Positions 39,381 through 58,849 of a stretch of 64,000 bases of DNA are shown here, piece by piece; within the stretch, counting starts at the first letter, position 1; every line of letters starts with the position of its first letter. A program made the translations under genes and the position numbers. This DNA is from Candidatus Undivivens industriae (lineage in GTDB: Bacteria; Omnitrophota; Gorgyraeia; Gygaellales; Profunditerraquicolaceae): the NCBI GenBank assembly GCA_012514745.1, contig JAAYZR010000025.1, positions 18,930-82,929 on the forward strand, given 5' to 3'. Under the pieces are notes generated by a model. The model did not search any database and was not told where the DNA came from. It was given only the letters and a program-made list of their open reading frames with translations.

Positions 39381-42300
39381 CTATTTAAACTCGAACCACG
39401 TCTGAGTGACGGGTTTATTGGCGATGTTGTCTATCATCTTCTGGTTGATGTCCATTACCGCCTTCAATTCCTGGGTTTTGTTCTTCAAATAGGTCATATC
39501 GCTCTTTTTCTCTTCGTTGACCTCCAGAAGCTTTTCCAGGCTGACGTTCTGTTCCGTGCTGACTTTCTTCAATTCCCTGCCGATATTTACCAGCTGCATG
39601 TAAACCGAATTGATATCGGTAGCGCTTCCCGCCACCTCCTTGACCTGATCTACAAGGTCTTTGCTGATCTTGCCCAGGGCCGACTCTATCACGGCGAACT
39701 GGCTGCTGAGAGTATCGGCGACTTTTGAAAAGTTATTCAGGCCGGATGTGGTGCCGAGCACGGCGGAGACCTGCCCGGCTATCTGCTCGATGTCCGAACG
39801 GATCACCGAAATGATCATCGCGTCCAGAGAGCCGTATGTGGATTCCGAACAAACGACTGTAAAATCACCCCTGCCCCAGCCGGAAGAGACGGTAATGGTG
39901 TATTCGTAGATACCTCCGGAGACCTCGGTCATCACGCCTTTAGACACGCGCTGGACGTTATTCGGGTCGTAGAAGTCCACCGTCGGCTGGACCCCCGGGT
40001 ACGTCCGGTAACGCACCACCAGGTCCGTGCCGCTCCTGACCGAATTCTCCCGGTTCAATATCTCCGATCTTATGTCCGTTTCCTGCTGCCGGCGCTCCTC
40101 CTCTATCTTCTCGGGGATGTCGGTCTCGGTGGCGGTGAGTATCCTGGCGGTATCCTCCCTTATCTCCTCCTTGGCCTGAGTGATCTTCTGCGGTATGTCC
40201 TGCGTGACCTGTGACTGAATGGTCGCGGTCTGCGTCTGCAGGTTTTGCAGTATGGCCGTCTGGCCCTTGGCGGTCAATTCCGTCGTTACGTCTATCGAAG
40301 CCCCGGAATTGTAAGTGCTGCCGCGGAAGACGACCGTGGATTTGACGAAATAAGTCTTGCCGGAAGTAAGGCCGGTATCGGCCCAGGTGAACCAGAAGGC
40401 GCCGTTGCCGTCCGGCGTGCCGGAGGTCAATGTCTTTATCAACGTTTCCCCGTCGTAAACGCTTAAGGTCGCGGAAGTGAGATCCGCCCTGTCGATGTCG
40501 TTCAAGCCCACGATCTTTCCCCTTCTTTCCAGCCAGGAAGAGGCGCTGATGGTATCGGTGGCGGAGTTGTAGGCCGTGGAAAGCAGGACGTGCCACTCGA
40601 TCTGCGCGCTTATGGAATTTTCCAGCAGGAGCGTGATGCTTTTATTGCCGTCGGCTATCCAGTCCGTGCTTCTTTCTATATAACCCTCTTTCGACCAGAA
40701 GGTGGTGTAATGCCCGTAGGGATACTCCTGCGTGACCGGACAGATAATGGTAGCGCTGGGGTCGGACCACCAGGTATCCCTGACGCTGAGGTTCTGCAAA
40801 TTATCCATATTATCGTAATCCTTGACCATCCAGGTGATCCGGTAATAGATGATGTTGAAAGAAGGCGATACGGAATAGACGGTGTCGTCCGTCGGGTCGG
40901 AAACCTTGAGCAACGCCTTTTGCCCGTGGTAATCCGGAGGCGCCCAGGTATAGACGCCGGTATTTGGAGTGCTGGTAACTATGGTCGTCCAGGTGTTCCC
41001 GGCATCCACGCTGTAATCAAGCTTGACGTTGGGGATCTGCCCTCTGGTCTGCCAGGTGACGGAGCGCGGTTCGTTAACCGCCCAATCGATGTTCGCCGCA
41101 GGATAGGTTATATTGAATCCGCCGCGTATCCTGAAATTGTTGTTTGAGGCGTCCGAGATAACGGTGCGCGTGGGATCATATATCTTTATCTTCAGGGTAT
41201 TGACGCAGATGGTGTCGTCCGGGATCACCCAGTTGTAACTGCCGGTATTAGGCGCCCCGGTCTTTATGGTGTGCGTGGTGGCGAAATTATCGGAAGAATA
41301 AACTATGGTCAGCGGATTGATCGACAACCCTTTGCTGGTCCAGGTGATGTTCACGCTGTCTCCTACGACATACTCCTCTCCGCCGTTGGGAGAAGTAACG
41401 GCGATCTGCGGATATTGCAGGACGTTGAATGCCTCCGAGGTGGCAATCGTCGCCGGCCGGTTGCCGTCCACGATGCGGATCTTCATATTGTTGGTCGGTT
41501 CGTCCGGCACGCTCCAGTTATAGCTGCCGTCGTTCGCCTCGCCCACACCTATCGTTTCTAAAGTGATGAAGTTATCGGTGGAATACTGCAGCAGCAGATT
41601 ATCGCTGACCGCACCCTCGGAGACCCAGGTGATGACCGCCGGGTCTCCTACAGCCCAGGAAGTGGCGGAGACCGGAGCGGTAATGGTTATCTTGGGATAA
41701 TCGATGATGAATGCGGCGTCCGAATGATCGACTGTGGTGGCGCGCTGGTTGTCGGTTATCCTCACCACGGCGTTGACGGAATAATCCTCGGGAATGGTCC
41801 ATTCGTAAGAGCCGCTGTTGGGGACCCCGCCGGATATCGGTTTCCAGTTCGAGCCGCCGTCCACGGAGTATTGAAGCACAAGGTTGTTGCTCAAGGGGCC
41901 GCCGTTATCGTGCCAGGTGATATTGTGTTTGGTTCCTATCCTCCACCTTTCGCCTCCGTTGGGGGAATCGATGGTAACCACCGGGAACGGCAGGATCGAA
42001 AAACCGGCGTTGGACTTATCCGTTATCTGGGGGACGGAATTGTCGGTGATCCTGACCCTCAAAACGGTAGAAAGGACTTCCGGGACGCGCCAGATATAGA
42101 CCCCGGTGTTGGCTACGTTATCCGCGATCTCGTTTATGTCCAGCACGAAGTTGTCGCGGGAATACTCGATCTTCAGGCTGTTGCTGACCGTCCCCTCCGT
42201 GGACCAGGTGATGTTCTCGTTGTCGGTGACCACGAGGATTTCCCCGCCGTTCGGCCGCGTAACCGTGATGATGGGATACGCTATGGAAAAGACGGTGTCG

Positions 42301-45300
42301 GTCGTATCCTCGATATACGGAGGTTCATTATCCTTGATCTTGATCTTGCAGGTCGAAGAGATATTTTCCGGAACGTTCCAGGCGTAGGAATGGTTGTTGG
42401 TAGGCCCGCTATAGACCGGCAGCCAGGTTGTTCCGCCGTTGACGCTGTAGGTAATGGTCACGTCGTCGGAGACCTGCCCGATGATATTCCAGAGTATCTC
42501 ATGGTTTGTCCCGTAAGGCCAGGCCTCCCCGCCGTTGGGCGTGGTGATGGTGATACTGGGAGCGGATATCTTGAAGACCGCGTCGGATGTATCCTGCGTC
42601 GCGGTGCGGGAATAATCGTATATGCGCACCTTACAATTATCCGAAATATCGTTCGGTATATGCCAGATATAGGTACCATCGTTGGGAATACCGCCGGCAA
42701 TGCTTTTCCAGGTGCTGCCGTTGTTGACCGAATATTGCAGAACGAGATTGTTGCTGATTGAATTATGGTCCCCGACGGAAGTCCAGGTCACGGGGTAATC
42801 GATGCCGACCACCCATAATTCACCTCCGTTGGGGGAGGTCAAAGTCAGCGAGGGCGCGATGATGGAGTTGTTATTTTTGGATTCTCCTTTGACTCCGGGC
42901 TGAGAGTCATCGGAGACTCTGATCTTCAACTCGCTGGTAGGCGAATCGGCGGTCTTCCAGGAATAACTGCCGCTGTTGGCCAGGCCGCCGCTGATCATCT
43001 GCCAGGTGCTCCCGCCGTTGACGCTGTATTCAAGTTTGATGGCGTTCAACCCGATGCTCCCCACCGACTCCCAGGTAATACTGTAGGTCCCGGCGGCGTA
43101 AAGAGACTCCCCGCCGTTGGGCCAGGTAAGCGTAAGCTGCGGTTTCTGAATGGTGAAGTCGGCGTCGGAAGAGTCTTCCACCCAGGGGAAATTCTCGCTA
43201 TCGTCGCATTTGATCTTGATCCTGGCGGTGCTGATCTCCACCTCCGGAGGTATCCAGAAATAAGAACCGTTATTGGGCCTCTGGTCGGAAATGACCTCAT
43301 AATGCTCGCCGGAATCGGGAGAGAAATAAACGGTGAGGAACTGGTCGTCCAGGGCATCCCCGATGGTGAACCATTTAACCTCATAGGGGGCGCCGATGGT
43401 GGTCTTTTCCCCGCCGTTCGGCTGCACCAGCACGATTATAGGCTTATCCAGCACCTCGAAATAGGCGTCGCTTTCATCAAAGACTTCCGGCCTGCTGGTA
43501 TCGGTTATCCTGATCTTGACGTTGCCGCCTACAGCGCCCTGAGGTATCACCCAGGAGTAACTGCCGTCGTCCGCCTCGTCCTCGGAAACCGCCGCCCAGT
43601 TCTCTTCCTCATCCACGGAATATTCTATACGCAGGGCGTTCTCTCCTATGGCCCCGTCCGAAGACCAGGCGATCTCGCGAGTATCTCCTCTCACCCACTT
43701 CTCGGAACCGTTGGGAGAGGAGAGCTTGATCGTCGGCAGTGTAATGGTGAAATCGCCTTCGGACGCGGTCTCCATTTGGGCCTGGGTGTCCCTTCCCGGC
43801 GGGACGGCGGTCTCCGCGATGCGGATCCTCACCCGCGAAGAGAGGACGTTCGGGACCGTGCAGGCGTAGGTCCCGGTGTTGCTCACCGATGACTGCAACA
43901 GCGTCCAGTTCGAGCCGCTGTCAACGGAATAATACACGTTAACCAGCGGATTGACGTTACCCCTGTTGTCCCAGGTGATATCCTTCGCGCTGCCGGCTTT
44001 CCACACCTCTCCTCCCACCGGAGAAGTGATGGTCATGGACGGTTTCGGCACGATGGAAAAGACGGTGTTGGAACGATCGGTAATATTGGTATTGTTCATA
44101 TCCGTGATGCGCATTAAACAAACGGAAGAAATATAGCTTTCCCTGTTCGGTATATTCCAGGTGTATAACCCGTTATTGATACGCTGGTCGGCGACCGGCG
44201 GATAGAGCCAGGTAGTCCCTCCGTCGAGCGAACATTCTATCTTCAGGTTGTTGGATACGGTGCCGTAGGAAGACCAGGTGATATTGTGCGTGGAACCGAT
44301 CTCCCACTGATTGCCGCCGTTGGGAGAATTCAATATCAACCCCATTATACCGAACGCGGCGTCCGAAGTATCCCGGATGGCGGAATACTTCTTGCTGGTT
44401 ACCCTGATCAGGGCGTTGGGAGAAGGATTGTTCGCCACCTGCCACTCATAAGCGCCGTTATTGGCCAGATTATCCACTATCAGCATCCAGGTGGAGCCCC
44501 CGTCGGTGGAATACTCGATCTTTACCTGATTATCCGCCCCGTCGATACCCTGCGACGTCCAGGTTATCAAAACGGTGGTGCCGATAGGCAGGGACTCTCC
44601 TCCGTTGGGGGAGGTTATCGTCAACACGGCGTCGAGATAAGAAAATCCCACGTTCTGCAGGACCGGGGTCTCCTGCCCGTAGGAATTCAGTACGGCCTTA
44701 TACTGCACCCAGCGGTCGTTAACGATATCGGAATTCAGAAAATTGACTAAGCTTCCGGAGGGCGTGATGTAATAAGTCGGCTCGGAAGTGGTAAAAACGC
44801 TGACCGTGTCCAGCAGAGGCGTGCCGACGCCGTCGGCGGAATTCAGGAAAGCGCGGAAAAAGAATTCCCCGCTGGGGAATTTTGTCTGGAAAGCGGCGAG
44901 ATTATTATTGATCTCCGGGGCCTCGTTGGTCTGGCTGAACCCGCCGCTCACCTCCTTCCAGGCGGTCCCGTCCCACCAGTGCCAGTTGTAACCGTCGCAG
45001 GAAACCTGGTACTTGATATCGGTGTCCAGCGGTATGGTGTTCACTTCCTGGAAAGCCGTGAGGTTATTGTCATAGAACACCCCCAGCACCGGCTGGATGA
45101 CCGGATTGGTGGTGTAATAAACCTCCATACCGGTGGGATTGGCGGTCTCGGTAAAGACGAAACCCACGTAAGGCTTGACCACGGCCTTCTTATAGACCAT
45201 TATCTTGTCCACGTAGATGGCATCGCTGGAAGAGCGTATGGTCGGCTTTATCGCCAGGCCCGGGCCCGCTACGTATCCGGCGTTATAGGTGAGCTTGTCG

Positions 45301-48300
45301 CCGGTGCTCAACTCGAAGATTACCTGGCCGGTCTGTCCGTTCAGCGTGTCGTGCGGTTTCCAGGACATCTTGTCTTTGTTCCACATGGCGAAGGTATACG
45401 GCGTGCGTATAGAATTCCAGGTCGTGTAGCCGTTGCCGGACTCGGCGTAATAGTAACCGTTGGAACTGATCAACACGTCGTAACCGGCCTTGTAATTGGA
45501 ATTGTTTATGCCGGTGGAGACCTTGGCGTTGGGGTCGCAGATGCCGATGAAATGCCTGCCGGTCTTGTTGGCCGTCTGCCAGGTCACCTCGGTGGTGATA
45601 TCGTAATTCGGGCTGACGTTGGATTTCGCCTGCAGATAACCGTTATGCGCGACCTTGGCCACGCTGCGGCCGCCCTGCGTGGTATCGGTAAGGGTGAATC
45701 TCCAGAAAAGGCTGTTCAGAGAAACCTCGGCGGCATTATCGAAGGTGCCGCTGATGGAGGCGCTCGTGCCGCCGGTAACGGAAGAAGGCAGAACCGGCCC
45801 CGAGCTCAATTGGAATTTACAGGCGATATTGAACAGTGCCGCCGGCGCCGCGGAACTGGAAAAGAGCTGGTTATTGTTCTGGTCGAGGACTGCCCATGAC
45901 CAGGAATAAAGATGCCCTGCGGTCAGGCCGGAAGGCATAGTTATGGAAATATTGCTGATTGTGCTGGTCCCGACCGGTACATTGAAGGTGGTACTGTCTA
46001 TCTCCTGGAAAGATGCCCCTGTGTCCACATCGGTCAGCGTGAAACGGAATCTTAATCCGTTCATGGCTATGGAATAGTTGTTTGTAAAGGTGCCGCCGAT
46101 GGTAGTTATGACCTGCCCCGGCGCCACGTTCTTCTCCATAAAAGGACCGGCCGTCATTCTCAAAAGGTCGTGGTAAAGGGTGAACGGCTGCGCTATACTC
46201 TGCGCCTCCACCAGGGCGCCGTTGGGCCAGCGCAGTTCCCAGTACCAGTCATACGTCCTGCCCGCGACTATGCCGGAAGGGATAGCGACCGTGGTCGAGA
46301 CCGTGCTCGCGCCGGCGGAAAGGTTAAAAGGGCTGCTGTCCATACCGAAGATAGAGGAAATAGTGGTCAGGTTGCAATACTGCGAATCCCATTTGTCCAA
46401 TCCGGCGTCGAAATCATCGAAAAACTCGAAAACGCCGTCCCCGTCGCTAAGGCTGGCCGCGTCTGCCTTGCCGTAATACATATAGATGATCTTCTGCTCC
46501 GTGTACGGCAATACCGGTATCTTCACCCAGAAACGCGCCTCTTTCCCGGTATAAGAGAAAGATTCCGCGTAATAATTCAGCAGGGCGCTTCCGTCTCCGT
46601 CCACGAAACGCACATCCCCGCCGTCGGCCAGGCAGTGCAGCCAGAAATCCCTGTGGTTCTTGTCCACGTCCACCGCCACCTGGAAATCGGTGAGCTCTTG
46701 CGTGTTCAAGGTATTGTCTATCTTGATGGTCTCTTTGTAAAGCCAGCCGGCAAGAGCGGGGCCGTCCGCGGGTTCCTCTTTCGCCACCAGGTAGGTGGAG
46801 ATAAGGTGATTGAACTCCGTGGGTTTCAACACCGGGGTGATCGCCTCTCCGTAAGAACTGTAGGCGTAAACGGCGAACTTTTTCGTGCCGGTCAAATGAA
46901 GGTTGCGCCAGGTGCTCCCGGGATCGAGAGTAGCCATACCTCCCCTGGCCGAAAGGGTCAAAGTGGTGGGGGACGGGCTGATGTCCCCGGTGACGGTGAT
47001 ATTGTTGGCGCCTTCTTCATAATCTATGAGCTTCAGATAACGCGCGCCTCCGGTATTTATATAATAATCCTTGCCCACGCTCACCAGTGTATCGGCGCTC
47101 TGATAGATCTGCCCCTTGCCTCCGTTCATATCGTCTGCCACCGCGCACAGCGGCTTGTCGGCGCTCAAACGCGCGCGCAGGGTCATGGCGCTCCCGGAGT
47201 TCGGGATATGCCTGTAACTCTGCCCTTTGTTCAACGTGCCGCTGTAATCCCCGGTGACCCCGTCCAGATTGTCGAAAACGATGTTGGTGTTATCCTCATA
47301 GGCGGTAAAGGTAACGTTGGCGTCCGGGCAATAGAAATAATACTCCCGCATATCGGGAGAACGCATCTGCTCCGAGGAATCGCCGTGGCCGATCAGCCCG
47401 GCCTGGACCGTGACCGGCTTGGTCGCCTCTATATGCCAAACCTCGCCCCTGGAATCCACCCTGTTCCAGCCGAACCAGAAATTTCCGGCGTCAAGCGTCA
47501 GGGTGCCGGTATCGTCGCCCTTGCCGTAGTCGGTGATCTTGATCTGGGTATCGTCGTTGTAGGCGGTGATGATCACGTCCCCGTCGTAGTTGTAAGCCGG
47601 ACACCAAAGCCAGAGGTCGTTGCCGCTGGCGGTGTAGTAATCGTCGTCCGAGGTGCTGCTCGGTTCTATGGATGAGGCGAATAAGGTAATCGGTTTCTGG
47701 GAATAGACGTGGTAGCAGGTCAGCGCCGTGTCCGTGTATCTCTGCGTTTCTCCCACGGAGGTGAAGTCCAGGAAGGTGGATGCCACCACCTGGCCTTCGG
47801 CGTTCAGTTTCTCTATATAGACGCGGTTGGGGGCATCGGTGGAGATGATGTCGAGGAAAGTGAAGGTCAGGGCGTAGAAATCAGTGCCTATCATAGATTC
47901 CGCCAGACTGGCGTCCGATTCCGAAGTCGCGCTCCATTTACCGTATAACAGGTATATCTCTTTTGCCGTCCCCTGCGGGATACTCGGCACGGTGACCCAG
48001 CAGGAGGCGCTTTTTTTGTCCTTGCTGAAACCCATTACGCGGTATTTCAAAGGCGTTTTGCCGTCGGAATCGGTGAAACGGATGTCGGAGCCGTCGTCTG
48101 CCACATGGTCCCAGAAGTCTATGTCCGCCGAGGGGATCTCCACCTTGACGGTGGTATTTGCGTAGGAGGAGCTCCCCGATGTGTTATCTACCACGATCTT
48201 CTGCCGGTAGAGATAATCTGCCAGCACCTTGGAGAGTTTAGCCGTGCCTGCGGAAAGCACCACCTCGGAGGTGTTGGCGTATTCATAGGCATTCTCGAAG

Positions 48301-51300
48301 TCATAAGTAATTTCCTGCACTCCCTCCGGGCCCAGCCAGGAAGACCAGGCCCCGGGAGAACCGTTGGAATCAGGCGCGGTGCGCATCTGAAAACGGATGT
48401 CGGTACCGGAAGGCAGCGTGGAGGTCCAGAAAAGGCTTTTCAGCCTGTCGGTGGTAAAAGTGGTGTCGTAAGCAGTGGAGACAAGCGTTTCCTGCGCTGG
48501 ATACTTGTTATAATTTATGGTAATACTATCCATCTGCGGCGGGCTGGCAAGGTCGTAGCAGAAGAACCTAAGCCTGTATTGCAGGTATTTGTCCTTGTCG
48601 TTCACCGAGCTGTATGAGGACAGGTCCCTACCCTTGGTTATCTTGCCGGCGTATCCCCAGGCAATGGCGTCGGATAAGGAACTGTTGTTTCCGGTGCGCA
48701 CGCGCACCTCGATCTGCCCCTGGGAGTTATCCTGCCAGGTAACGGCACCGTATCCGGCGTTGTTGCCGATCTCCTTTATCTCCGAGGTGTATTCCCCGGA
48801 AGAAAACAGCAGATACTTCATCAGCGAATAGTTGCCGTATCCGCTGGAGACATAGATGTAATCACCGCTGCCGGGATACATGGCGTTGGCCTGTCCGTCC
48901 ATGGAAAAAGGCATATCCTCGTTCTTCTCCCAGGTATTACTGCTGATGGAATACCTGTAAAAATACGGGGTGCCATAGGCAATATCGTAATTATAGGAAA
49001 CAAAAAGATAGATATAGTCGCCGAACCCGGGGCTGAACAGGCTCGCTCCGACGTTGAGCATCGGCAGAACGGTCAATGTTGACCAGGTGTTGGCCACCGT
49101 ATCGTATTTCCAGAAAGCGGTGGAGCCGTTGCCCGGAGTAACGTAGATGTAATCCCCGCTTCCCGGATATACCAGGTTTGCTCCCAGAGCACAGGCGGAA
49201 GGAGCTGAAGCCACTTCCTTCCAGTCGTTGTTGGCGATCGAATACCTCCATAAGGTAGTGGTGGAACCGCCGCGCAGGACGTAAATATAACCGTCTTTAT
49301 ACTCGATCGCCTGGCCGGTGGAGAAAGTGGCGGGCGGGGCGGCGAGGTTGGTCCAGAGGTCGGTGCTCACCGTGTATTTCCAGAAATCGGAATAACCGCG
49401 CCCCCTGGTAACGTAGATGTCGTCTCCTGTGCCCGGGTAAACGCTCTTGGAATCGTAATAAACGCCCGAAGGCGTGGATTGCAGGGTGTACCACACCGAG
49501 GAAGAAAGATTGTATTTATAACAGGAGGTGGAGTTGCCGCCGCGCAGATAGAATACGTCGTCCCCGGAAGGCATCGGGCATATCGAGGCCCCGTAACTGG
49601 CGCTGGCAGGATAGACTATGGTTTCGTCCCACCTGTTCTGGCTGATGGAATAACGGTTGAAATTAGTGCCCAAATCTCCGTGCCCGGTGCCGAGATAGAA
49701 ATAAATGATATCACCGCTGCCCGGGTAATAACCGCCCGGCATACCGGAGACGGAAAGCGGGGCCTCGGTAAGAATAGTCCAGGAGTTCTGGCTTAAGGAA
49801 TACCTGGCGAAATCCCTGCCCCCGCCCTTCAGGCAGTAGAGATAATCCCCCGCGCCCGGATACATCAGATAACAATAATCGGCGATAGACCAGGGGGCGT
49901 CGGAGAGATATCCCCAGGTATCGCTGTCAATACTGTATTTAGTGAATTTGACCGCCCCGGCCTGTTTAAGCATATAAATACCTTTATACGGGCCGTCGGG
50001 GATGAGACAGGTGCCGTTGCCCTCACTGGAGATCCCCTCCAGCATCGAGGTAAGCGCGACCCAGGAACCGCCGGACTCGTCGTCAGTGAACTTGAGAAAA
50101 GTGGTGGAGTTATAGTACCCGGGGCAGACGTAGATACTGCTTTCGTCGCTGACCATACGCGCGCCATAGGTGAACATATAGGGGCTGGAATTTATCTGCA
50201 TCCAGATCCCGGTCTCGGTGTTGTATTTCCAGAAATTCTTGTTCATATTCCCTTCCGAGACATAGATGTAATCCCCGCTGCCCGGATAAACCGCCCTGTG
50301 CCCTGCCCCGTGCACGATAAAGGGGAGTTTTATAAGATTCACCCATTTTTTTCGGCTGATAGAGTATTTCCAGACGTAGTTCGACCATCTGTTCGAGAAG
50401 AGATACATATAATCGCCTTTTACCACCAGACTACCGGAGACGTTCCTGCCCGGCCCGAAGTTATAATTCACCAGCGGATTGTTCCACTCTCCTGTGGCAA
50501 AAGTATAAGTCTGCACTCCTCCATATCCGTAGTAACCTACGTTATACAACTTTGTGTCGCTGGCGCACAGCTTGCCTTTTTGAAACACCGGAGGGAAAAA
50601 AAGCGTCTGCCAGGAATTGGTGGATATATTGTATTTAAAGAAAGCTCTGCGAAATTCCAGGTTGCATGCCCCTCCCTCGCTGTAATAAATGGCGTTCTCG
50701 GAAGATGAATAAACGAGTCTCCCCTGGCATTGCGACCTCCAGCAGTCGGGAAGGTTGGCCCTGCGCTCCCAGGTACCGGTAGAGAGCCTGTAACTCATGA
50801 ACTCCGTGCGGGCACTGGCGCGGAACATATATATGTAATCCGAACCGTCGTAAGCGGCGCAGACCCCGGTCTGAAAGGTCCCGTAGGGATTGGTGCTCAC
50901 CGTGGCCCAGGCGCGGCCGGTTTTATCGTACCTGTATAGATTCGCGGTATAGGTGACCGTGCCGCCGGTATTATTCCTGCCTCCCAGACAATACACGTAA
51001 TCATCCGTAACCACCAGCCTATTCCCCCCATAAGCCAAGTTCTGCGGCAAGGCCGGCAGCTGTTCCCAGCTCTGGGATGTGAGACTATAGCGGGAAAATC
51101 CATCCTGCTCATACCCCTGGAGGCAATATATATAATCATCTCCCTGTTTATACCCCAGACATCCTCCTCTGTGGATTCCTAAAGTATTGCCGGCGAAAGT
51201 AACATCCGAAAGCTTCTCCCATTGAAAGGAGACTGCGGTATTGCTGGAATTGACGGGATTGAAAGTAAGGAAATACCGATAGAAGTTTCTGGTGCCTTCG

Positions 51301-52700
51301 CCCCTGGTCAGATAAATGGCGTCCTGCGAAGCCACATACACGGCATCGCCGCCGTAGCGCAGTTCAAAAGCCGCCGCCGACTCTTCCCTCCACTTCTTTT
51401 GCGCGGGATAATACCGGTAAGTGGAGCTGTAGCTGTGGTTGCTCAACAGGCGCAGTTCGCTGCCGCTGCCGTCCGGGTCGTAAATATACATCCTGCCATA
51501 GATGTAGAACGGCAGAGCCGGCATCTCCACGTTTTTGGCGAGCGTGGATGAATAAGCCGAACTCTCCCAGGTGTCGGAGCCTATGGAATATCTGCCGAAC
51601 CACCTGCCGGCGCCGTACCAAGAGTAAAGGTAGTCCCCGGAACCGGGATAGACCACATCGGAATCCCAAGTCTGGCCGGTGGGACAGTTGGAAAGCGTGG
51701 TCCAGGCGTTGGAGCCGGCGGTATAATCGAATTTGGCGAAAGTGACGGAACCGCCGCCCGCGGTAGCGTAGATATAGGGAGAATCGGCTTTGGGATAACA
51801 AAGAGAAGCGCCGACACCCACGGTAAAAGGCGCGGATTCCACCGCCGACCAGGAACCGGTGGCGTTGATGTCCAAAGGCATCACGAACCTGTAGAAGACC
51901 GAAGTGTTGTTGCCGCAAAAGGCGTATGCCCGGCCGATGGAAGACACGATAGCGATCGTCCCGCCGTAACCTACGGTGGAAGGGACGTTGGCCTTGACAT
52001 GCCAGGTATTGGTGGATATTTTATAAGCGTAAAACTCCTTGCGATTACCTCCTATCAAGGCATATATTACGTCGCTGCCGTCGTAAGCCAAAGCGGCTCC
52101 CTGGCCTGTGCTCACGGGTATGCTTTCCATCAATTCCCATTTCTCTTCGTCAATGGACCAACGGGCAAACGCCTTATTGTCGTTGCCGCACTGCCATAAG
52201 GAATAGATGTAATTCCCGGCCTTGACCAGCGGTGATGTCCTGCCCATATAAGGAGAGAAAGGAAGACTGGACCATTGGCCGAGAGAACTGCAGAAAGGGT
52301 CCTGGTAAACCGTGTTGATCTCTACCCTGGCGGAGGCGCCGCTGCCTCCGACCACCACGTTGTTTTTCGTCCCCAGGGAAAAGTCCGTATCCGTGTCGTC
52401 TGTCAGTGCGAGGGTCAGCGGAGACATCACCAACTTGCCCGTAACGCTGGTGGTAAGATTGGAGCTTTTGGAGGAATATTTGGTCCAGTTGCTCTTGTTG
52501 GTAGGGTGTTTGGCTGTATCGGTGGAGGCTCCGCCTCTCCAGTCGCCCTGGCTGAAGTTATAGTATTCTTCACAGAAGGCGCCGGAACAGAGACAAAGAG
52601 AACAGACCAGGAGCGCCGCCAGCGGCATTATCATTATCAATATTCCGGGGTATCCCCTTTTCTTCATCTCTATCTTTCCTTCAGCGCCATACTTACGCAT
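39381..52700 (-). CDS. Giant (4,439 aa) secreted multi-domain protein: beta-propeller blades, DUF2341-like regions, tandem Ig-like modules, coiled-coil C-terminus
   Basis: Uninterrupted 13.3-kb ORF with a signal-like N-terminus. It has more than 15 Kelch-like blades marked by (V/M)YPGSGDY(I/L)Y. Two regions carry D-x-RF-x-D-x-DG...L-x-Y motifs. At least 12 tandem modules of about 85 aa have the form TSPNGGE-W--G----ITW---G-------YS-D-G-TW--I------G-Y-W-VP. The last 300 aa or so are coiled coil. Its ATG overlaps the upstream radical SAM stop (ATGCGTAA). Confidence 0.8.
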   Translation of the reverse strand: MRKYGAEGKIEMKKRGYPGILIMIMPLAALLVCSLCLCSGAFCEEYYNFSQGDWRGGASTDTAKHPTNKSNWTKYSSKSSNLTTSVTGKLVMSPLTLALTDDTDTDFSLGTKNNVVVGGSGASARVEINTVYQDPFCSSLGQWSSLPFSPYMGRTSPLVKAGNYIYSLWQCGNDNKAFARWSIDEEKWELMESIPVSTGQGAALAYDGSDVIYALIGGNRKEFYAYKISTNTWHVKANVPSTVGYGGTIAIVSSIGRAYAFCGNNTSVFYRFVMPLDINATGSWSAVESAPFTVGVGASLCYPKADSPYIYATAGGGSVTFAKFDYTAGSNAWTTLSNCPTGQTWDSDVVYPGSGDYLYSWYGAGRWFGRYSIGSDTWESSAYSSTLAKNVEMPALPFYIYGRMYIYDPDGSGSELRLLSNHSYSSTYRYYPAQKKWREESAAAFELRYGGDAVYVASQDAIYLTRGEGTRNFYRYFLTFNPVNSSNTAVSFQWEKLSDVTFAGNTLGIHRGGCLGYKQGDDYIYCLQGYEQDGFSRYSLTSQSWEQLPALPQNLAYGGNRLVVTDDYVYCLGGRNNTGGTVTYTANLYRYDKTGRAWATVSTNPYGTFQTGVCAAYDGSDYIYMFRASARTEFMSYRLSTGTWERRANLPDCWRSQCQGRLVYSSSENAIYYSEGGACNLEFRRAFFKYNISTNSWQTLFFPPVFQKGKLCASDTKLYNVGYYGYGGVQTYTFATGEWNNPLVNYNFGPGRNVSGSLVVKGDYMYLFSNRWSNYVWKYSISRKKWVNLIKLPFIVHGAGHRAVYPGSGDYIYVSEGNMNKNFWKYNTETGIWMQINSSPYMFTYGARMVSDESSIYVCPGYYNSTTFLKFTDDESGGSWVALTSMLEGISSEGNGTCLIPDGPYKGIYMLKQAGAVKFTKYSIDSDTWGYLSDAPWSIADYCYLMYPGAGDYLYCLKGGGRDFARYSLSQNSWTILTEAPLSVSGMPGGYYPGSGDIIYFYLGTGHGDLGTNFNRYSISQNRWDETIVYPASASYGASICPMPSGDDVFYLRGGNSTSCYKYNLSSSVWYTLQSTPSGVYYDSKSVYPGTGDDIYVTRGRGYSDFWKYTVSTDLWTNLAAPPATFSTGQAIEYKDGYIYVLRGGSTTTLWRYSIANNDWKEVASAPSACALGANLVYPGSGDYIYVTPGNGSTAFWKYDTVANTWSTLTVLPMLNVGASLFSPGFGDYIYLFVSYNYDIAYGTPYFYRYSISSNTWEKNEDMPFSMDGQANAMYPGSGDYIYVSSGYGNYSLMKYLLFSSGEYTSEIKEIGNNAGYGAVTWQDNSQGQIEVRVRTGNNSSLSDAIAWGYAGKITKGRDLSSYSSVNDKDKYLQYRLRFFCYDLASPPQMDSITINYNKYPAQETLVSTAYDTTFTTDRLKSLFWTSTLPSGTDIRFQMRTAPDSNGSPGAWSSWLGPEGVQEITYDFENAYEYANTSEVVLSAGTAKLSKVLADYLYRQKIVVDNTSGSSSYANTTVKVEIPSADIDFWDHVADDGSDIRFTDSDGKTPLKYRVMGFSKDKKSASCWVTVPSIPQGTAKEIYLLYGKWSATSESDASLAESMIGTDFYALTFTFLDIISTDAPNRVYIEKLNAEGQVVASTFLDFTSVGETQRYTDTALTCYHVYSQKPITLFASSIEPSSTSDDDYYTASGNDLWLWCPAYNYDGDVIITAYNDDTQIKITDYGKGDDTGTLTLDAGNFWFGWNRVDSRGEVWHIEATKPVTVQAGLIGHGDSSEQMRSPDMREYYFYCPDANVTFTAYEDNTNIVFDNLDGVTGDYSGTLNKGQSYRHIPNSGSAMTLRARLSADKPLCAVADDMNGGKGQIYQSADTLVSVGKDYYINTGGARYLKLIDYEEGANNITVTGDISPSPTTLTLSARGGMATLDPGSTWRNLHLTGTKKFAVYAYSSYGEAITPVLKPTEFNHLISTYLVAKEEPADGPALAGWLYKETIKIDNTLNTQELTDFQVAVDVDKNHRDFWLHCLADGGDVRFVDGDGSALLNYYAESFSYTGKEARFWVKIPVLPYTEQKIIYMYYGKADAASLSDGDGVFEFFDDFDAGLDKWDSQYCNLTTISSIFGMDSSPFNLSAGASTVSTTVAIPSGIVAGRTYDWYWELRWPNGALVEAQSIAQPFTLYHDLLRMTAGPFMEKNVAPGQVITTIGGTFTNNYSIAMNGLRFRFTLTDVDTGASFQEIDSTTFNVPVGTSTISNISITMPSGLTAGHLYSWSWAVLDQNNNQLFSSSAAPAALFNIACKFQLSSGPVLPSSVTGGTSASISGTFDNAAEVSLNSLFWRFTLTDTTQGGRSVAKVAHNGYLQAKSNVSPNYDITTEVTWQTANKTGRHFIGICDPNAKVSTGINNSNYKAGYDVLISSNGYYYAESGNGYTTWNSIRTPYTFAMWNKDKMSWKPHDTLNGQTGQVIFELSTGDKLTYNAGYVAGPGLAIKPTIRSSSDAIYVDKIMVYKKAVVKPYVGFVFTETANPTGMEVYYTTNPVIQPVLGVFYDNNLTAFQEVNTIPLDTDIKYQVSCDGYNWHWWDGTAWKEVSGGFSQTNEAPEINNNLAAFQTKFPSGEFFFRAFLNSADGVGTPLLDTVSVFTTSEPTYYITPSGSLVNFLNSDIVNDRWVQYKAVLNSYGQETPVLQNVGFSYLDAVLTITSPNGGESLPIGTTVLITWTSQGIDGADNQVKIEYSTDGGSTWMLIVDNLANNGAYEWQVANNPSPNALIRVTSKKYSAIRDTSDAAFGIMGLILNSPNGGNQWEIGSTHNITWSSYGTVSNNLKIECSLDGGTTWLYPPVADQRINNGLYTWNIPNRESYISSVCLMRITDMNNTNITDRSNTVFSIVPKPSMTITSPVGGEVWKAGSAKDITWDNRGNVNPLVNVYYSVDSGSNWTLLQSSVSNTGTYACTVPNVLSSRVRIRIAETAVPPGRDTQAQMETASEGDFTITLPTIKLSSPNGSEKWVRGDTREIAWSSDGAIGENALRIEYSVDEEENWAAVSEDEADDGSYSWVIPQGAVGGNVKIRITDTSRPEVFDESDAYFEVLDKPIIVLVQPNGGEKTTIGAPYEVKWFTIGDALDDQFLTVYFSPDSGEHYEVISDQRPNNGSYFWIPPEVEISTARIKIKCDDSENFPWVEDSSDADFTIQKPQLTLTWPNGGESLYAAGTYSITWESVGSIGLNAIKLEYSVNGGSTWQMISGGLANSGSYSWKTADSPTSELKIRVSDDSQPGVKGESKNNNSIIAPSLTLTSPNGGELWVVGIDYPVTWTSVGDHNSISNNLVLQYSVNNGSTWKSIAGGIPNDGTYIWHIPNDISDNCKVRIYDYSRTATQDTSDAVFKISAPSITITTPNGGEAWPYGTNHEILWNIIGQVSDDVTITYSVNGGTTWLPVYSGPTNNHSYAWNVPENISSTCKIKIKDNEPPYIEDTTDTVFSIAYPIITVTRPNGGEILVVTDNENITWSTEGTVSNSLKIEYSRDNFVLDINEIADNVANTGVYIWRVPEVLSTVLRVRITDNSVPQITDKSNAGFSILPFPVVTIDSPNGGERWRIGTKHNITWHDNGGPLSNNLVLQYSVDGGSNWKPISGGVPNSGSYEWTIPEDYSVNAVVRITDNQRATTVDHSDAAFIIDYPKITITAPVSATSWAVGDPAVITWVSEGAVSDNLLLQYSTDNFITLETIGVGEANDGSYNWSVPDEPTNNMKIRIVDGNRPATIATSEAFNVLQYPQIAVTSPNGGEEYVVGDSVNITWTSKGLSINPLTIVYSSDNFATTHTIKTGAPNTGSYNWVIPDDTICVNTLKIKIYDPTRTVISDASNNNFRIRGGFNITYPAANIDWAVNEPRSVTWQTRGQIPNVKLDYSVDAGNTWTTIVTSTPNTGVYTWAPPDYHGQKALLKVSDPTDDTVYSVSPSFNIIYYRITWMVKDYDNMDNLQNLSVRDTWWSDPSATIICPVTQEYPYGHYTTFWSKEGYIERSTDWIADGNKSITLLLENSISAQIEWHVLLSTAYNSATDTISASSWLERRGKIVGLNDIDRADLTSATLSVYDGETLIKTLTSGTPDGNGAFWFTWADTGLTSGKTYFVKSTVVFRGSTYNSGASIDVTTELTAKGQTAILQNLQTQTATIQSQVTQDIPQKITQAKEEIREDTARILTATETDIPEKIEEERRQQETDIRSEILNRENSVRSGTDLVVRYRTYPGVQPTVDFYDPNNVQRVSKGVMTEVSGGIYEYTITVSSGWGRGDFTVVCSESTYGSLDAMIISVIRSDIEQIAGQVSAVLGTTSGLNNFSKVADTLSSQFAVIESALGKISKDLVDQVKEVAGSATDINSVYMQLVNIGRELKKVSTEQNVSLEKLLEVNEEKKSDMTYLKNKTQELKAVMDINQKMIDNIANKPVTQTWFEFK

Positions 52701-53562
52701 GAAAATACTCCGAACTCCCCGCCGGTTTCTTCTCTTCCAGGCCGGGGATACCGCAGGCGTCGGCCCTGCACTGCCTGCACTTCCTGAACTGGTTTATGCA
52801 AAGCTCACACGCGCTCCTGGCCTCCTGCAGCTCCACGCAGGTGGGAGGCCGCTTATCCTTCATCTGCGAGACCGGGATAAGCGGGATAATATTCATTATG
52901 TGCGCGCCCAGCGCCGAATACTCCTTGGCTATCGCAAAAACCTGCTGCTTGTTGATCTCCGGGATAAGCACGGTATTGACCTTCACCGTGAAGCCGGCCT
53001 TGACGGCTTTTCCGACCCCGTCCTTCTGCCGCTCTATGAGAAGCGCGGCGCCTTCTTCTCCTGTATATGTCTTACCTTTAAAGTTGACGAACCCGTATAT
53101 CTGCGCGCCTATTGCGGCATCGAGGGTATTGACGGTGACCGTGACCGTCCCCACCTTAAGTTCCTTCAATACGGCGATCTTATCCGCAAGCAGCAGCCCG
53201 TTGGTGGAGAGGCACTTCATCAGATCCGGATGGTGTTTCTCCATCAGCCTGAAAGTCTCGAAGGTCTCCTCGTTGGCCAGGGACTCTCCCGGCCCGGCTA
53301 TGCCGGCAACGGTTATACAGTATTTCCTGCGCGCCTCGCTCACTTTTTCCAGCGCCTCGGCCGGTGAAATTATCTTCTCCGACACCCCGGGCCTGTCTTC
53401 AGTCAGATTAAGAGAGCGCAGACAGTATTTACAGCCGATATTGCAGTCGCGCGCCACCGGAAGATGCACCCTGCCGTAGCGGGAATGCGCCGCCTCCGAG
53501 AAACAGGGGTGCCTGTCGAGAGAAAAGGTCTTTTTACGCAGGAACCTGCCGAGAATATTCAT
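52693..53562 (-). CDS. NifB-like radical SAM protein (radical SAM core only)
   Basis: RHPCFSEAAHSRYGRVHLPVARDCNIGCKYCLRSLNLTEDRPGVSE resembles the NifB N-terminus with a CxxxCxxC cluster motif. 289 aa with no NifX-like C-domain. The stop overlaps the giant gene start. Confidence 0.7.
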   Translation of the reverse strand: MNILGRFLRKKTFSLDRHPCFSEAAHSRYGRVHLPVARDCNIGCKYCLRSLNLTEDRPGVSEKIISPAEALEKVSEARRKYCITVAGIAGPGESLANEETFETFRLMEKHHPDLMKCLSTNGLLLADKIAVLKELKVGTVTVTVNTLDAAIGAQIYGFVNFKGKTYTGEEGAALLIERQKDGVGKAVKAGFTVKVNTVLIPEINKQQVFAIAKEYSALGAHIMNIIPLIPVSQMKDKRPPTCVELQEARSACELCINQFRKCRQCRADACGIPGLEEKKPAGSSEYFHA

Positions 53563-54137
53563 CTGACGGCCCCTCCGGATTTATATATGTAAAGCGCTCC
53601 CGTCAACACAAGTATGACCCCTCCCGCTCTTTTTATGACGTGCCTGTGCGGCGCCACCCTCCCCAGCAGACCGGCTGAAACAAATCCCAGAGAAAGATAG
53701 ACCGAAGAGCTTAAGGCGTAAGCCAGCGAAACAAGCATGCCCTGGAACAGCTTTGTGCCCAGTATCAAAGGCACAAGATAAATGTATTTTCTGCCGGGAT
53801 TCAGCATACCCCGCATAAGTCCCATCCCGAACCCCACCCTGCCCTGCAGAGAGCCGCCGTTTTTTTCCCGGTGATTCCCGACGGACAAAAGGGAATATAT
53901 CCCCATTGCGGCGACCGCTATGCCGAACAGCAGATTCACGGCCCTTTTATCTATAGTCAAAGAACGCCCCAGCAAAGCGACTATCAGGCCGAAAATGAGC
54001 AGACCGATCAGCCTGCCGAGAAGGAATTTCAGGCCCGCGTACCTGTCCGATAGAGTGAGCCCGAAAGCCAGGAATGGGCAGATGAACAGCCCTTCCGCGG
54101 ACAACCCTATCACCAGCGCCGTTAATATCCTCTCCAT
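53559..54137 (-). CDS. Polytopic membrane protein (about 6 TM), unknown function
   Basis: 192 aa, hydrophobic throughout. Overlaps the downstream radical SAM gene by 4 nt. Confidence 0.5.
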   Translation of the reverse strand: MERILTALVIGLSAEGLFICPFLAFGLTLSDRYAGLKFLLGRLIGLLIFGLIVALLGRSLTIDKRAVNLLFGIAVAAMGIYSLLSVGNHREKNGGSLQGRVGFGMGLMRGMLNPGRKYIYLVPLILGTKLFQGMLVSLAYALSSSVYLSLGFVSAGLLGRVAPHRHVIKRAGGVILVLTGALYIYKSGGAVR

Positions 54138-54155: not shown

Positions 54156-54695
54156 TCAATGGCACTTAAAACTCTCCACGATACCCCGGAATTCGCTTTT
54201 AGTGACCGTTCCCAGCAGATCCAGAAAAAGGAATTGCCTGCCGGTCTCCGGACAACTGAAGCGGCAAAGCAGTATCTCCTCTTCGGAAGACTTCCCGCAG
54301 GGGCGCGTAACGTTCACGCTCCCTTTCGAGAAAGATACCGCGTGCCCGTTTACCCGGGTCTCTTTATCATCCTCACGTTCTCCGGAAGAAAGCCTATACC
54401 TTTCCGCGGGGAAAAAAGACATTACCTCCTGTCTCTGTTTTCCCCAGGAAACGGCGAATAAACGCTCGAACATCCCCCGCTCTGTCGTGCTTACGAAGAT
54501 CACCGTCCCTTTCTCTTCGCCGCCTTCCACCGTTTCCGGAGGAAGGAACGCGGGGACTTCAAAACTTATGTTGCTGTCCTTCTTCCGATCTATCTGTCTC
54601 TTGTCGCCGGCTCCCGGAGCGTCCTGCGCGGCTAAAAGCAGAAAAACCAGGGACAAAAAGAACGTCCATGAGCTTCTGTATCCGGGGATTCTCAC
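54156..54695 (-). CDS. Secreted hypothetical protein
   Basis: Signal peptide WTFFLSLVFLLLAAQDAPGA. The GTG start overlaps the stop of the upstream HUH gene (GTGA). Confidence 0.45.
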   Translation of the reverse strand: MRIPGYRSSWTFFLSLVFLLLAAQDAPGAGDKRQIDRKKDSNISFEVPAFLPPETVEGGEEKGTVIFVSTTERGMFERLFAVSWGKQRQEVMSFFPAERYRLSSGEREDDKETRVNGHAVSFSKGSVNVTRPCGKSSEEEILLCRFSCPETGRQFLFLDLLGTVTKSEFRGIVESFKCH

Positions 54696-55678
54696 TTCTT
54701 CCCGCCTTTTGCCTTTTCTCTTTCTTCCGTGAGTTCTTTCACCTTCTGTTTCTCTATATCAAGGCGCTTCTGCATCGCCTGATAGGATACCAGGTCGGCG
54801 CGGTACAATTCCTGCAGGTCCTTCTTGATGAATTCCCTGTCCTTCATCAACCTTTCGCTGTACTCCATATCCTTACGGCGAGAGATGTTTTTAAGCCTGT
54901 TTTTCAGATTGACCTGCACGATCAGCAGCGAAACGGCGATAACACAGAAAACCGGGATAAGCATCTTCGCCCGGCGCAGGGAGACCTCGTTTTCGCCGTG
55001 CGCTCCGGCCGCGGCGGAAGTTTTCTCGCTCTCGACTTCCGCTCTCACTTTAGCCACGAAATCATCGCTGCCGAGGATGTTCTTCCTGACCAGCTCTTTA
55101 CCGAGCGCTTCCATCTCCGGAGCCGAAAGAAACCCCATATATTCCGGATACGTCAAAGGCGCGTCTGCGGCCTGCGACAAAAGCGCTTCCATTTCCCTGC
55201 GCTCCGCCTGCATATCGAAAAGACTGCCCTGCCCTTGCCCGGCGAATGCCCGATAACTGCTGAATTCATAGGCCCCGGGATCATCGGCAAACCCCAGTTT
55301 GCAAGGGTTCTTGTGCATATACGCGCTTACCCCGGGTAAATAACCGCTTTTTTCCAGAATGGTGATCTTCGCCCTTTCCTGGAGAAGATGCCCTTTCCTG
55401 CCGTAACGGGAATTGAAATATTTGGTGTAATTGGAGTTCAAGGCGTGCATTATCCGGGAAACCGTGCATCCCTCCCTGGGCTCGATAAGCAGATGCACGT
55501 GGTTCGGAAGCAGAACAAAAGAAAACACCCTGCAGCCGAACTGTTCTTTATATTTTCTTAATAATTCAATGTATGTCCGAAAGTCCCGGCTGTCTTTGAA
55601 AATGACTTCTTCATTATCTCCGCGGGAGGTAACGTAATAAACGGAGCCCTCGATGTAAATGCGTGGTATCTTCTCCAT
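54692..55678 (-). CDS. HUH/Y1 transposase-like (IS200/RAYT-like) domain protein with C-terminal TM + coiled-coil extension
   Basis: The N-terminal 150 aa carry YYVTSRG, HuH motif LLPNHVHLL and tyrosine motif AYMHKNPCKLGFADDPGAYEFSSYRAF. A TM segment LIPVFCVIAVSLLIVQ and a K/E-rich coiled coil follow. GAGGAGTG SD precedes the chosen ATG(55678). Confidence 0.6.
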   Translation of the reverse strand: MEKIPRIYIEGSVYYVTSRGDNEEVIFKDSRDFRTYIELLRKYKEQFGCRVFSFVLLPNHVHLLIEPREGCTVSRIMHALNSNYTKYFNSRYGRKGHLLQERAKITILEKSGYLPGVSAYMHKNPCKLGFADDPGAYEFSSYRAFAGQGQGSLFDMQAERREMEALLSQAADAPLTYPEYMGFLSAPEMEALGKELVRKNILGSDDFVAKVRAEVESEKTSAAAGAHGENEVSLRRAKMLIPVFCVIAVSLLIVQVNLKNRLKNISRRKDMEYSERLMKDREFIKKDLQELYRADLVSYQAMQKRLDIEKQKVKELTEEREKAKGGKK

Positions 55679-55716
55679 TTTCACTCCTCTATGCGTGGCA
55701 CGCCGCCGCAAAACAT

Positions 55717-55743
55717 AAAAAAAACCGGGCAGTCCTGCCCGGG
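55717..55743 (-). terminator. Intrinsic terminator (candidate riboswitch expression platform)
   Basis: Minus-strand CCCGGGCAGGACUGCCCGG followed by U8. Lies about 30 nt after the aptamer-like segment and 27 nt upstream of the RBS/ATG at 55678. Confidence 0.7.
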
Positions 55744-55774
55744 ATCGTCAAATCAAGCATATCCCAAGTCTTCG

Positions 55775-55862
55775 GCAGTCTGCCGTTCCTTATAAACAGC
55801 CAAGGAAGCATGACTTTGCGCCCTCCGGTTACCCGGAGTTTGCCTTTTCGGATCGAGATACA
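55775..55862 (-). ncRNA. c-di-GMP-I (GEMM)-like riboswitch aptamer
   Basis: Minus strand: AAAAGGCAAAC-UCCGGGUAACCGGAG-GGCGCAAAGUC-AUGCUUCCUUGGCUGUUUAUAAGGAAC-GGCAGAC. This parallels the Vibrio cholerae Vc2 aptamer, whose sequence is given here from memory: GGGCAAACC, a P2 hairpin with GNRA tetraloop, GACGCAAAGCC, a P3 hairpin, then GGUAGC. Confidence 0.55.
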
Positions 55863-55876
55863 ATCTACCTGTATAA

Positions 55877-55904
55877 AGTATACCACAAATAGCGCTTTTA
55901 TCAA
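55877..55904 (-). promoter_or_regulatory. Extended -10 sigma70-like promoter driving the riboswitch leader
   Basis: Minus strand TTGATA-16 nt-TATACT, with TG immediately upstream of the -10 hexamer (TGGTATACT). The predicted TSS is near 55870. Confidence 0.45.
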
Positions 55905-58818: not shown

Positions 58819-58849
58819 TCCCACCTCCACAGCGAAACAAAGCCGCTCT

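Follow-up and report, generated by a model that had tools for sequence, protein, structure and literature searches.

A predicted class I c-di-GMP riboswitch conserved upstream of RAYT-like HUH protein and giant protein genes in Omnitrophota

Among described riboswitches for cyclic dimeric guanosine monophosphate (c-di-GMP), two sets of class I switches are close to the element treated here. In Bacillus thuringiensis, the class I aptamer Bc2 and an intrinsic terminator precede cap, a gene for a collagen adhesion protein of the cell surface, and the switch has been shown experimentally to be ON: the bound form makes an anti-terminator, and most transcripts end in the leader (PMC4933901). The class I switches of Clostridioides difficile, for example flgB/Cd1, are transcriptional OFF switches in which the ligand induces premature termination, and one of them precedes the gene for a calcium-binding adhesion protein (PMC11477304). 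Here we describe a predicted switch of this class in a 64,000-nucleotide stretch of DNA from Candidatus Undivivens industriae (Omnitrophota; assembly GCA_012514745.1, contig JAAYZR010000025.1), and we refer to this whole stretch as the window. The element lies in the leader of a five-gene operon on the minus strand, which begins with the gene for a RAYT-like HUH membrane protein (gene 1) and ends with the gene for a giant surface protein (gene 5).

Omnitrophota are uncultured, very small, and partly predatory bacteria that are known for their giant genes. Conserved secretion loci upstream of these genes and PilZ genes downstream have been described, as have GGDEF domains within many of the giant proteins themselves (10.1101/2023.11.21.568195). 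Riboswitches are mentioned neither in that preprint nor in a 2026 preprint on complete Omnitrophota genomes. Our full-text literature search found no link of riboswitches to Omnitrophota giant genes; the only co-mention of riboswitches and Omnitrophota was in an unrelated study of the ComFB receptor (two versions), and c-di-GMP riboswitches and IS200 were not found together. The element, which a standard Rfam scan detects, is an ordinary addition to a riboswitch class that has long been known. What it adds is its phylum, an association with a RAYT-like membrane protein and giant surface proteins that is retained in distant relatives, a likely negative sign of control, and a second conserved element in the leader.

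The window leader shares with Bc2 the arrangement of a class I aptamer and an intrinsic terminator upstream of a gene for a surface protein. Unlike the cap transcript, however, the window operon begins with an HUH protein gene, and unlike the anti-terminating bound form of Bc2, the window aptamer is separate from its terminator, an arrangement that predicts OFF control. This logic is like that of the C. difficile switches, although in the window it is only predicted, and the phylum and the regulated genes differ. With Rfam family RF01051 and the Vc2 aptamer of Vibrio cholerae, the leader has in common a three-helix junction, the core strings AAAAG-GCAAAC and ACGCAAAG, a GNRA loop on helix P2, and G, A, and C at the ligand-contacting positions, and it passes the family threshold. 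It differs from Vc2 in its P2 loop (GUAA), in carrying UCC/GGA in helix P3 instead of the 11-nt GAAA receptor, and in its Omnitrophota host.

Aptamer structure and class

The whole window was scanned on both strands with the covariance models of Rfam 15 (4,227 families) at their curated gathering thresholds. A single full-length match to the c-di-GMP-I clan was obtained on the minus strand (55853-55770), and this was the sole Rfam match in the 64 kb. The top model was RF03167 (c-di-GMP-I-GGC), with 60.4 bits, an E value of 9.3e-12, and coverage of model positions 1-80 of 80; the gathering threshold of 59 is thus passed by a marginal 1.4 bits. The original prediction, which was made from the sequence without database searches, had claimed a GEMM-I-like aptamer at this place and had suggested a covariance-model search with RF01786 (c-di-GMP-II) as a comparator. 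The claim was upheld in that the gathering thresholds of the c-di-GMP-I clan were reached and both P2 and P3 show covariation (see below). The comparator stayed blank, with no RF01786 match at E <= 10 in 55500-56100, and a permissive Rfam scan of the same interval returned nothing else of note.

We then used one genome scan and one metagenome scan for the gene 1 protein to collect 88 related loci. The closest genomic relatives of this protein are encoded by Candidatus Omnitrophota metagenome-assembled genomes and are 73-92% identical to it. A covariance model of our own was built on 18 of the leaders and run over 636 kb, which yielded 54 aptamers.

Thermodynamic folding of the window sequence alone recovers P2 and P3. 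The same helices, together with the closing G-C/C-G pairs, were found by RNAalifold in a MAFFT alignment of the 18 leaders, where compensatory changes occur at 15 of 21 pairs. In a larger alignment of 49 distinct sequences, which was fitted to the covariance model and so favors the structure, 95.0% of cells are standard pairs compared to 80.5% in column shuffles, and pairing drops to 29-45% once the partners are slid by 1-3 columns. Double-sided changes are present at 18 of the 21 pairs in this alignment, and none of 500 shuffles reached the observed value for any of the five measures used. The independent MAFFT/RNAalifold result agrees. The P2 loop, GUAA in the window, is a GNRA loop in nearly all relatives.

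Although RF03167 is the highest-scoring model, several observations bear on whether the window aptamer belongs to this variant family or to the canonical one. The Rfam scan applies clan competition, so only the best family per clan is reported by name and lower-scoring clan members are counted. In gathering mode, one further clan family exceeded its own threshold on bases 55853-55770. The number of such unnamed matches equaled the number of matches with RF03167 as the best model in each of four scans (1/1, 3/3, 3/3, and 2/2), and therefore the second family is RF01051, the canonical c-di-GMP-I family (threshold 35). Furthermore, the orthologous leaders of loci L001 and L002 differ from the window by 2-4 bases and score 56.6 and 58.9 bits under RF01051. 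These few differences suffice to make RF01051 the best model, which is why we regard the preference for RF03167 as a near tie. The edge of RF03167 probably reflects its P1 columns (cacg...cgaag), which fit the window leader and are not modeled by RF01051.

The core consensus lines of the two families differ at one place, where RF03167 has GGGACGC-G-AAgCc and RF01051 has ggGACGC-A-AAgCc. The window reads GGGCGC-A-AAGUC, and the corresponding position is blank in the RF03167 match line. An A after CGC is also found in 54 of 54 related aptamers, so the G that defines the GGC type (variant consensus CGCGAA) is absent from the entire set. The pocket strings of the window are CGCAAAG, AAAAG-GC, and CUGCCG. 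Alignment to the model consensus places G55844 just before the paired GC and also identifies A55817 and C55775; these three bases correspond to G20, A47, and C92, the ligand contacts in the Vc2 crystal structures.

These details make it very improbable that the aptamer is a specificity variant for another ligand, whether of the RF03167 GGC type or a binder of c-AMP-GMP. Such a reading could draw on the top score of RF03167 and on six related leaders with A at the G20-equivalent position, a signature of c-AMP-GMP-responsive GEMM variants (PMC9481103). However, the only core position that differs between the families is A in the window, as in RF01051, neighbors that are 2-4 bases away flip to RF01051, and the window has G at the G20 equivalent and C at the C92 equivalent, unlike the c-AMP-GMP signature. 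Judged from its sequence, the aptamer is of the canonical class I c-di-GMP type despite the RF03167 score, and we infer that the window RNA would bind this ligand. RF03167 matches just over the threshold can thus be ordinary c-di-GMP-I aptamers.

Two points weigh against this assignment. The RF01051 score of the window aptamer is bounded rather than read directly, at 35 or more and less than 60.4 bits. P3 is without the classic 11-nt GAAA tetraloop receptor (RF01051 consensus CUAAgg...cuAuG), and an invariant UCC/GGA takes its place in the window and its relatives.

The six leaders with A at the G20-equivalent position are L020:512-604, L039:5760-5875, L041:511-607 (minus strand), L046:1889-1984, L050:5717-5870, and L055:5799-5894. 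Four of them exceed the RF01051 threshold (L020, 48.9 bits; L039, 49.9; L046, 56.2; L055, 49.8). A different cyclic dinucleotide may thus be sensed by some of the Omnitrophota leaders in this gene family. Large structured insertions in P2 extend the aptamer matches of L019, L028, L043, L050, L058, and L064 to 120-180 nt. These insertions hold repeated hairpins, such as CCGCCA...UGGCGG, and they lower or abolish the Rfam score while the core remains intact; L050 and L058 fall below the Rfam threshold for this reason.

Conservation of the leader and of its gene association

The association between the aptamer and the HUH protein gene is retained across the related loci. A match to the c-di-GMP-I clan over its Rfam threshold is present in at least 37 of the 88 loci, and of the 54 aptamers found with our own model, 49 share the strand of the HUH gene and precede it by no more than 400 nt. 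Conversely, 75 loci have 300 nt or more of sequence before the gene, and 47 of these carry an aptamer at this distance and on this strand. When loci are sorted by identity to the gene 1 protein, aptamers are found in 7 of 8 loci above 60%, in 22 of 29 at 40-60%, and in 14 of 22 at 35-40%; the link persists among relatives down to 33% protein identity. Of the 26 riboswitch-bearing loci whose downstream sequence extends for 3 kb or more, 24 have a homolog of the giant protein after the HUH gene, and in several loci (L012, L015, L017, L019, and L052) the giant gene starts 42-250 nt past the HUH gene. Because genes 2-4 are confined to close relatives and the giant homolog recurs, the sequence comparison identifies the conserved unit as the riboswitch, the HUH membrane protein gene, and the giant protein gene. 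A riboswitch conserved in front of HUH and giant genes offers a direct and testable link from c-di-GMP to giant-protein expression. This conservation also singles out the RAYT-like membrane protein as a constant partner of giant proteins.

Two loci depart from the usual layout. In L016 (4594-4685) the riboswitch lies between the two genes, past the HUH gene and directly in front of the giant gene; in L046 two aptamers (900-1016 and 1889-1984), about 900 nt apart, lie upstream of one HUH gene.

The five genes of the window operon lie on one strand. Genes 1 and 2 overlap by 4 nt, genes 2 and 3 are 18 nt apart, genes 3 and 4 overlap by 4 nt, and genes 4 and 5 overlap by 8 nt. Control of the whole operon by the leader is reasonable because of this packing. 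A scan found no clear terminator after gene 5, and therefore the transcript may run on. We consider it doubtful that the riboswitch controls only the first gene or genes, with the giant gene expressed mainly from its own promoter and linked to c-di-GMP indirectly. An mRNA of 16 kb would be long, and the separate riboswitch before the giant gene of L016 indicates that a giant gene can have its own control region. However, the overlaps of 4-8 nt and the single 18-nt gap speak for one transcript, as does the recurrence of the order riboswitch, HUH gene, giant gene in the 24 loci noted above, several with only a short interval between the two genes. Moreover, L016 itself supports the giant gene as a conserved riboswitch target.

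The signals that flank the aptamer are conserved as well (Table 1). The original prediction had proposed a TTGATA-16-TATACT promoter with an extended TG, and a consensus scan recovered it at the same place. A promoter-like match of this quality is not significant alone (1 found compared to 1.2 expected). Nevertheless, TTGAnA and TGnTATACT are kept at the same place in orthologous leaders, and TGnTATACT is invariant or nearly so in the leaders of loci at 33-48% protein identity. A whole-leader alignment of six loci gives the same picture: TTGA..A and TGnTATACT are invariant, and the aptamer and terminator hairpin are kept. Judging from the promoter spacing, the transcript probably starts near 55870. 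A terminated leader RNA with this start would be about 150 nt long, which is the length that had been guessed, and an RNA of this size provides an in vitro handle that does not depend on culturing the organism.

The intrinsic terminator with its U8 tract, the GAGGAG Shine-Dalgarno sequence, and the ATG were likewise located where they had been predicted. The terminator stem has seven pairs, six of them G-C, and begins 27 nt past the aptamer; another 27 nt separate the U-tract from GAGGAG. All 41 leaders examined for this feature carry a hairpin (6-13 predicted pairs) followed by U6-U9 between the aptamer and the start codon. The stem sequences vary among the relatives while the hairpin and U-run stay, as in L005, where the terminator reads UCUCAAAGGC-AGUC-GCCUUUGAGA and is followed by U9. 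Two open reading frames (ORFs), at 55753-56022 on the minus strand and at 55663-56046 on the plus strand, run across the leader and are taken to be spurious; the pattern of conservation is that of an RNA with compensatory changes.

Table 1. Coordinates of leader features and operon genes in the window
Feature	Position	Strand	Basis or remark
-35 element, TTGATA	55899..55904	-	consensus scan; 10/12 matches jointly with the -10 element
Extended -10 element, TG-g-TATACT	55877..55885	-	consensus scan; 16-nt spacer from -35
5' strand of possible extended P1, GUAUCUCGA	55853..55861	-	pairs with 55767-55759 in centroid and minimum free energy folds; tentative
c-di-GMP-I aptamer	55770..55853	-	Rfam match, covariation, folding
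Junction AAAAG, G20 equivalent at 55844	within aptamer	-	model alignment
P2 with GUAA loop	55838-55823	-	covariation and thermodynamic folding
A47 equivalent	55817	-	model alignment
P3	55815-55777	-	covariation and thermodynamic folding
C92 equivalent	55775	-	model alignment
Switching segment, CUUGGGAUAU	55759..55768	-	3' strand of extended P1 or 5' strand of putative anti-terminator
Putative anti-terminator 3' strand, AUCCCGGG	55745-55738	-	within terminator 5' arm
Intrinsic terminator, AUC + CCGGGCA-GGAC-UGCCCGG	55717..55745 (stem 55742-55725, U8 55724-55717)	-	terminator scan and folding
Leader box, GTGCCACGCA, between terminator and Shine-Dalgarno	55692..55701	-	only exact match in the window
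Shine-Dalgarno GAGGAG and ATG of gene 1	55689-55684 and 55678-55676	-	sequence; kept in orthologs
Second box copy, one mismatch, ATACCACGCA	55660..55669	-	32 nt downstream of the first; gene 1 codons 4-7
Gene 1, 328 aa, RAYT-like HUH/Y1	54692..55678	-	Pfam Y1_Tnp, 3e-11
Gene 2, 179 aa, hydrophobic N-terminus, no family	54156..54695	-	overlaps gene 1 by 4 nt
Gene 3, 192 aa, membrane protein, about 5 hydrophobic segments	53559..54137	-	weak DsbD_2-like match; no family assigned
Gene 4, 289 aa, NifB-like radical SAM	52693..53562	-	Pfam Radical_SAM, 4e-16
Gene 5, 4,439 aa, giant protein, N-terminal signal/anchor	39381..52700	-	DUF2341, Kelch, Kre9_KNH Ig-like, and Reelin-B domains

Termination and the direction of switching

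We hold with good confidence that the leader consists of a promoter, a canonical class I c-di-GMP riboswitch, and a terminator that together serve the five-gene operon and act on elongation. Termination of transcription is probably the means by which the switch acts. The direction of control is a separate matter, and here the layout leads us to favor OFF, in which the ligand would induce termination, with fair confidence.

Step-wise folding of the growing leader gives three successive states. At lengths of 112-128 nt, a long P1 is formed by GUAUCUCGA (55861-55853) and UUGGGAUAU (55767-55759). At 132-144 nt, the minimum free energy (MFE) structure is instead a hairpin between CUUGGGAU (55768-55761) and AUCCCGGG (55745-55738), in which the outer part of P1 is broken. 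At 146 nt and beyond, P1 is restored and the full terminator is present. When the core aptamer and outer P1 are enforced, the pairing of the terminator 5' arm with upstream sequence decreases from 0.73-0.86 to 0.18-0.58, and the terminator forms fully.

A near-repeat between the 3' strand of the aptamer and the terminator core had led the original prediction to propose mutually exclusive pairing. The near-repeat is real (GGCAGACUGCC and GGCAGGACUGCC), and folding does find competing pairings. However, the best-supported competition is that of CUUGGGAU for either the P1 flank or AUCCCGGG, rather than a pairing of GGCAG with CUGCC alone.

A mechanism consistent with these folds can be proposed. 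RNA synthesis would start near 55870 from the sigma-70-type promoter, and bases 55853-55770 would adopt the three-helix GEMM fold. Binding of c-di-GMP would lock the aptamer and P1, CUUGGGAU would stay in P1, and the 5' arm of the terminator would be free; the terminator would then form and a leader RNA of about 150 nt would be released (OFF). In the absence of ligand, CUUGGGAU would already be paired to AUCCCGGG when the terminator's 3' arm is transcribed. The resulting delay in hairpin formation would allow the polymerase to read on into all five genes.

The opposite direction, in which termination is the default and the ligand promotes read-through so that the giant protein is induced at high c-di-GMP, appears unlikely to us. 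This reading gains from the experimentally established ON behavior of Bc2, whose class I aptamer also precedes an adhesion protein gene and works through an anti-terminator (PMC4933901), and from the fact that adhesins are commonly induced by c-di-GMP. It is also favored by the thermodynamic dominance of the terminator when no ligand term is included, and by weak statistical support for a specific anti-terminator in the ligand-free state. However, ON control needs a bound fold that removes one arm of the terminator, and the aptamer, together with any P1, and the terminator stem have no bases in common in the window or in any of the 41 relatives. Both structures are present together in the MFE fold of 32 of 41 leaders. 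These two observations indicate that a ligand-locked aptamer would be compatible with termination and argue against an ON switch of the Bc2 type. In addition, the terminator forms fully with the aptamer and P1 enforced, and the only competitor of its 5' arm that we found in the window, CUUGGGAU, is freed by the opening of P1 and not by its closure. Class I switches of C. difficile with downstream terminators are likewise OFF (PMC11477304).

OFF control by ligand-induced termination is nonetheless subject to several results that count against it. In the full leader, folded without a ligand term, six of the seven terminator pairs have probabilities of 0.96-0.998 and the loop-closing A-U pair has 0.81. 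The terminator is thus dominant at equilibrium, and therefore OFF control would have to arise from kinetic competition. The core aptamer can coexist with the anti-terminator, which competes with the outer P1 alone, and the anti-terminator and P1 states are only 1.4 kcal/mol apart. Complementarity of the P1 flanks in 40 leaders is not above that of shuffled controls (mean z -0.18; window -0.24; one leader below -1.64), which is why the extended P1 is marked as tentative in Table 1. For the terminator 5' arm, the duplex energy with upstream sequence does not clearly exceed that of shuffles (mean z -0.31), and sequestration of this arm before the 3' arm exists amounts to 0.62 compared to 0.54 in shuffles (mean z 0.46). 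An excess over shuffles is seen only for complementarity between the aptamer and the terminator loop plus 3' arm (mean z -1.28; 16 of 41 leaders below -1.64), a suggestive result; if the 3' arm pairs with the aptamer, the product could equally be a second terminator, as in L021. Lastly, no GGDEF, EAL, HD-GYP, or PilZ domain was found among the window ORFs scanned. Synthesis of c-di-GMP in this host is therefore assumed from the phylum.

These considerations modify one further claim, namely that c-di-GMP controls an adhesin-like protein. The riboswitch does head the operon that encodes the giant protein, but the layout points to repression rather than to induction of an adhesin.

The leader box, the HUH protein, and their genomic setting

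A second conserved element lies between the terminator and the Shine-Dalgarno sequence. This box has the 10-nt consensus RTGCCASGCA. Across the 88 loci, the sense strand holds 62 exact copies from -300 to +30 of the gene start, and the remaining 1.08 Mb of strand-bases holds 11, so that the box is enriched about 230-fold on the sense strand immediately before homologous genes. The usual positions are -23 and about -54. The second copy in the window covers the I-P-R codons of gene 1 and the first base of the next codon. Pairs with a similar spacing of 31-33 nt occur 11 times in other loci, where the second copy often coincides with (M/I)-P-R codons. The box could be an operator or an RNA site, possibly for the HUH protein itself.

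Three other explanations of the box were tried and rejected. The window box opens a six-codon ORF, MPRIEE*, that covers the Shine-Dalgarno sequence, and the box might thus be read as a coding upstream ORF. However, MPRIEE* is without a Shine-Dalgarno sequence of its own, and the box is constant by nucleotide while the same residues are encoded by varied codons in the main gene, which makes this reading unlikely. A sigma-54 site was considered because the palindromic variant contains TGGCAC, but no TTGC is present at the right spacing. A palindrome around the window box (GCGTG-C-CACGC) was set aside as well, since L003 and L004, which are close relatives, do not share it.

Several variations were noted among the relatives. 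An extra box copy is located just upstream of the -35 element in L005, L015, and L052, and a palindromic form of the box, GTGCCAGGCAC, is found in other lineages. In L012:177-360 and L013:3730-3912, an ORF of about 60 codons begins at the box (ATGCCACGCAT..., MPRIKGEE...) and occupies the additional 160 nt that separate the HUH gene from the terminator in these loci.

The gene 1 protein resembles the RAYT protein TnpA-REP of Escherichia coli (PDB 4ER8). A profile match to this structure aligns the HUH motif (LPNHVHLL) and the tyrosine motif (AYMHKNP), and, as in RAYT systems, a short conserved DNA motif is repeated beside the gene. Unlike RAYT proteins, gene 1 falls under the NCBIfam cut-off for REP_Tyr_transpos (66.6 bits compared to 80), and its product has one added transmembrane helix (about residues 234-260) and a charged, coiled-coil-like C-terminal tail. 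The gene is also in fixed synteny with a giant gene, and its box is a one-strand 10-mer that is not dispersed in the window; therefore the arrangement is not like that of a mobile REP system. The wider family, with approximately 150 homologs, combines the same RAYT-like HUH/Y1 domain, transmembrane helix, and conserved coiled-coil-like C-terminus. Its HUH histidines and motif tyrosine are among the invariant or nearly invariant residues, and its members keep the fixed synteny with giant protein genes and are not dispersed in the manner of a mobile element.

A broader reading, which we offer as quite speculative, is that Omnitrophota carry a module of four parts in fixed order: the aptamer with its terminator, the box, which is often present twice around the start codon with a spacing of 32 nt, a domesticated RAYT-like HUH membrane protein, and the giant surface protein. 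The HUH protein would bind the box of its own leader, as DNA or as RNA, and would work together with the giant protein. If this were true, the HUH protein would no longer move DNA and might act instead in, for example, the export, anchoring, or processing of the giant protein. A second-messenger signal and feedback by the HUH protein would then decide when a giant protein for attachment or predation is deployed.

The operon is situated inside a locus that resembles those for type II secretion systems (T2SS) and type IV pili. On its upstream side (57557-62343) are genes for a secretin, a T2SS-C-like protein, an AAA ATPase, and TPR proteins. On its downstream side are genes for T2SS-F, G, K, and PilM/N (24799-30919) and for a T2SS-E/PilB-type ATPase (30921-32612, minus strand), and a cluster for an F-type ATP synthase (32624-37687) lies between the two secretion/pilus halves. 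At its N-terminus, the T2SS-E/PilB-type ATPase carries MshEN, a domain known to bind c-di-GMP.

The five genes agree with those listed in the original prediction: an HUH protein with one transmembrane helix, a 179-aa protein, a membrane protein with five segments, a NifB-like radical SAM enzyme, and an anchored protein of 4,439 aa. Genes 2 and 3 both encode small proteins of the cell envelope. Gene 4 scores 265.8 bits with TIGR01290 (nifB), under the cut-off of 343.65. Its product is most similar to the NifB core; gene 4 is found without nitrogenase context and overlaps the giant gene immediately downstream.

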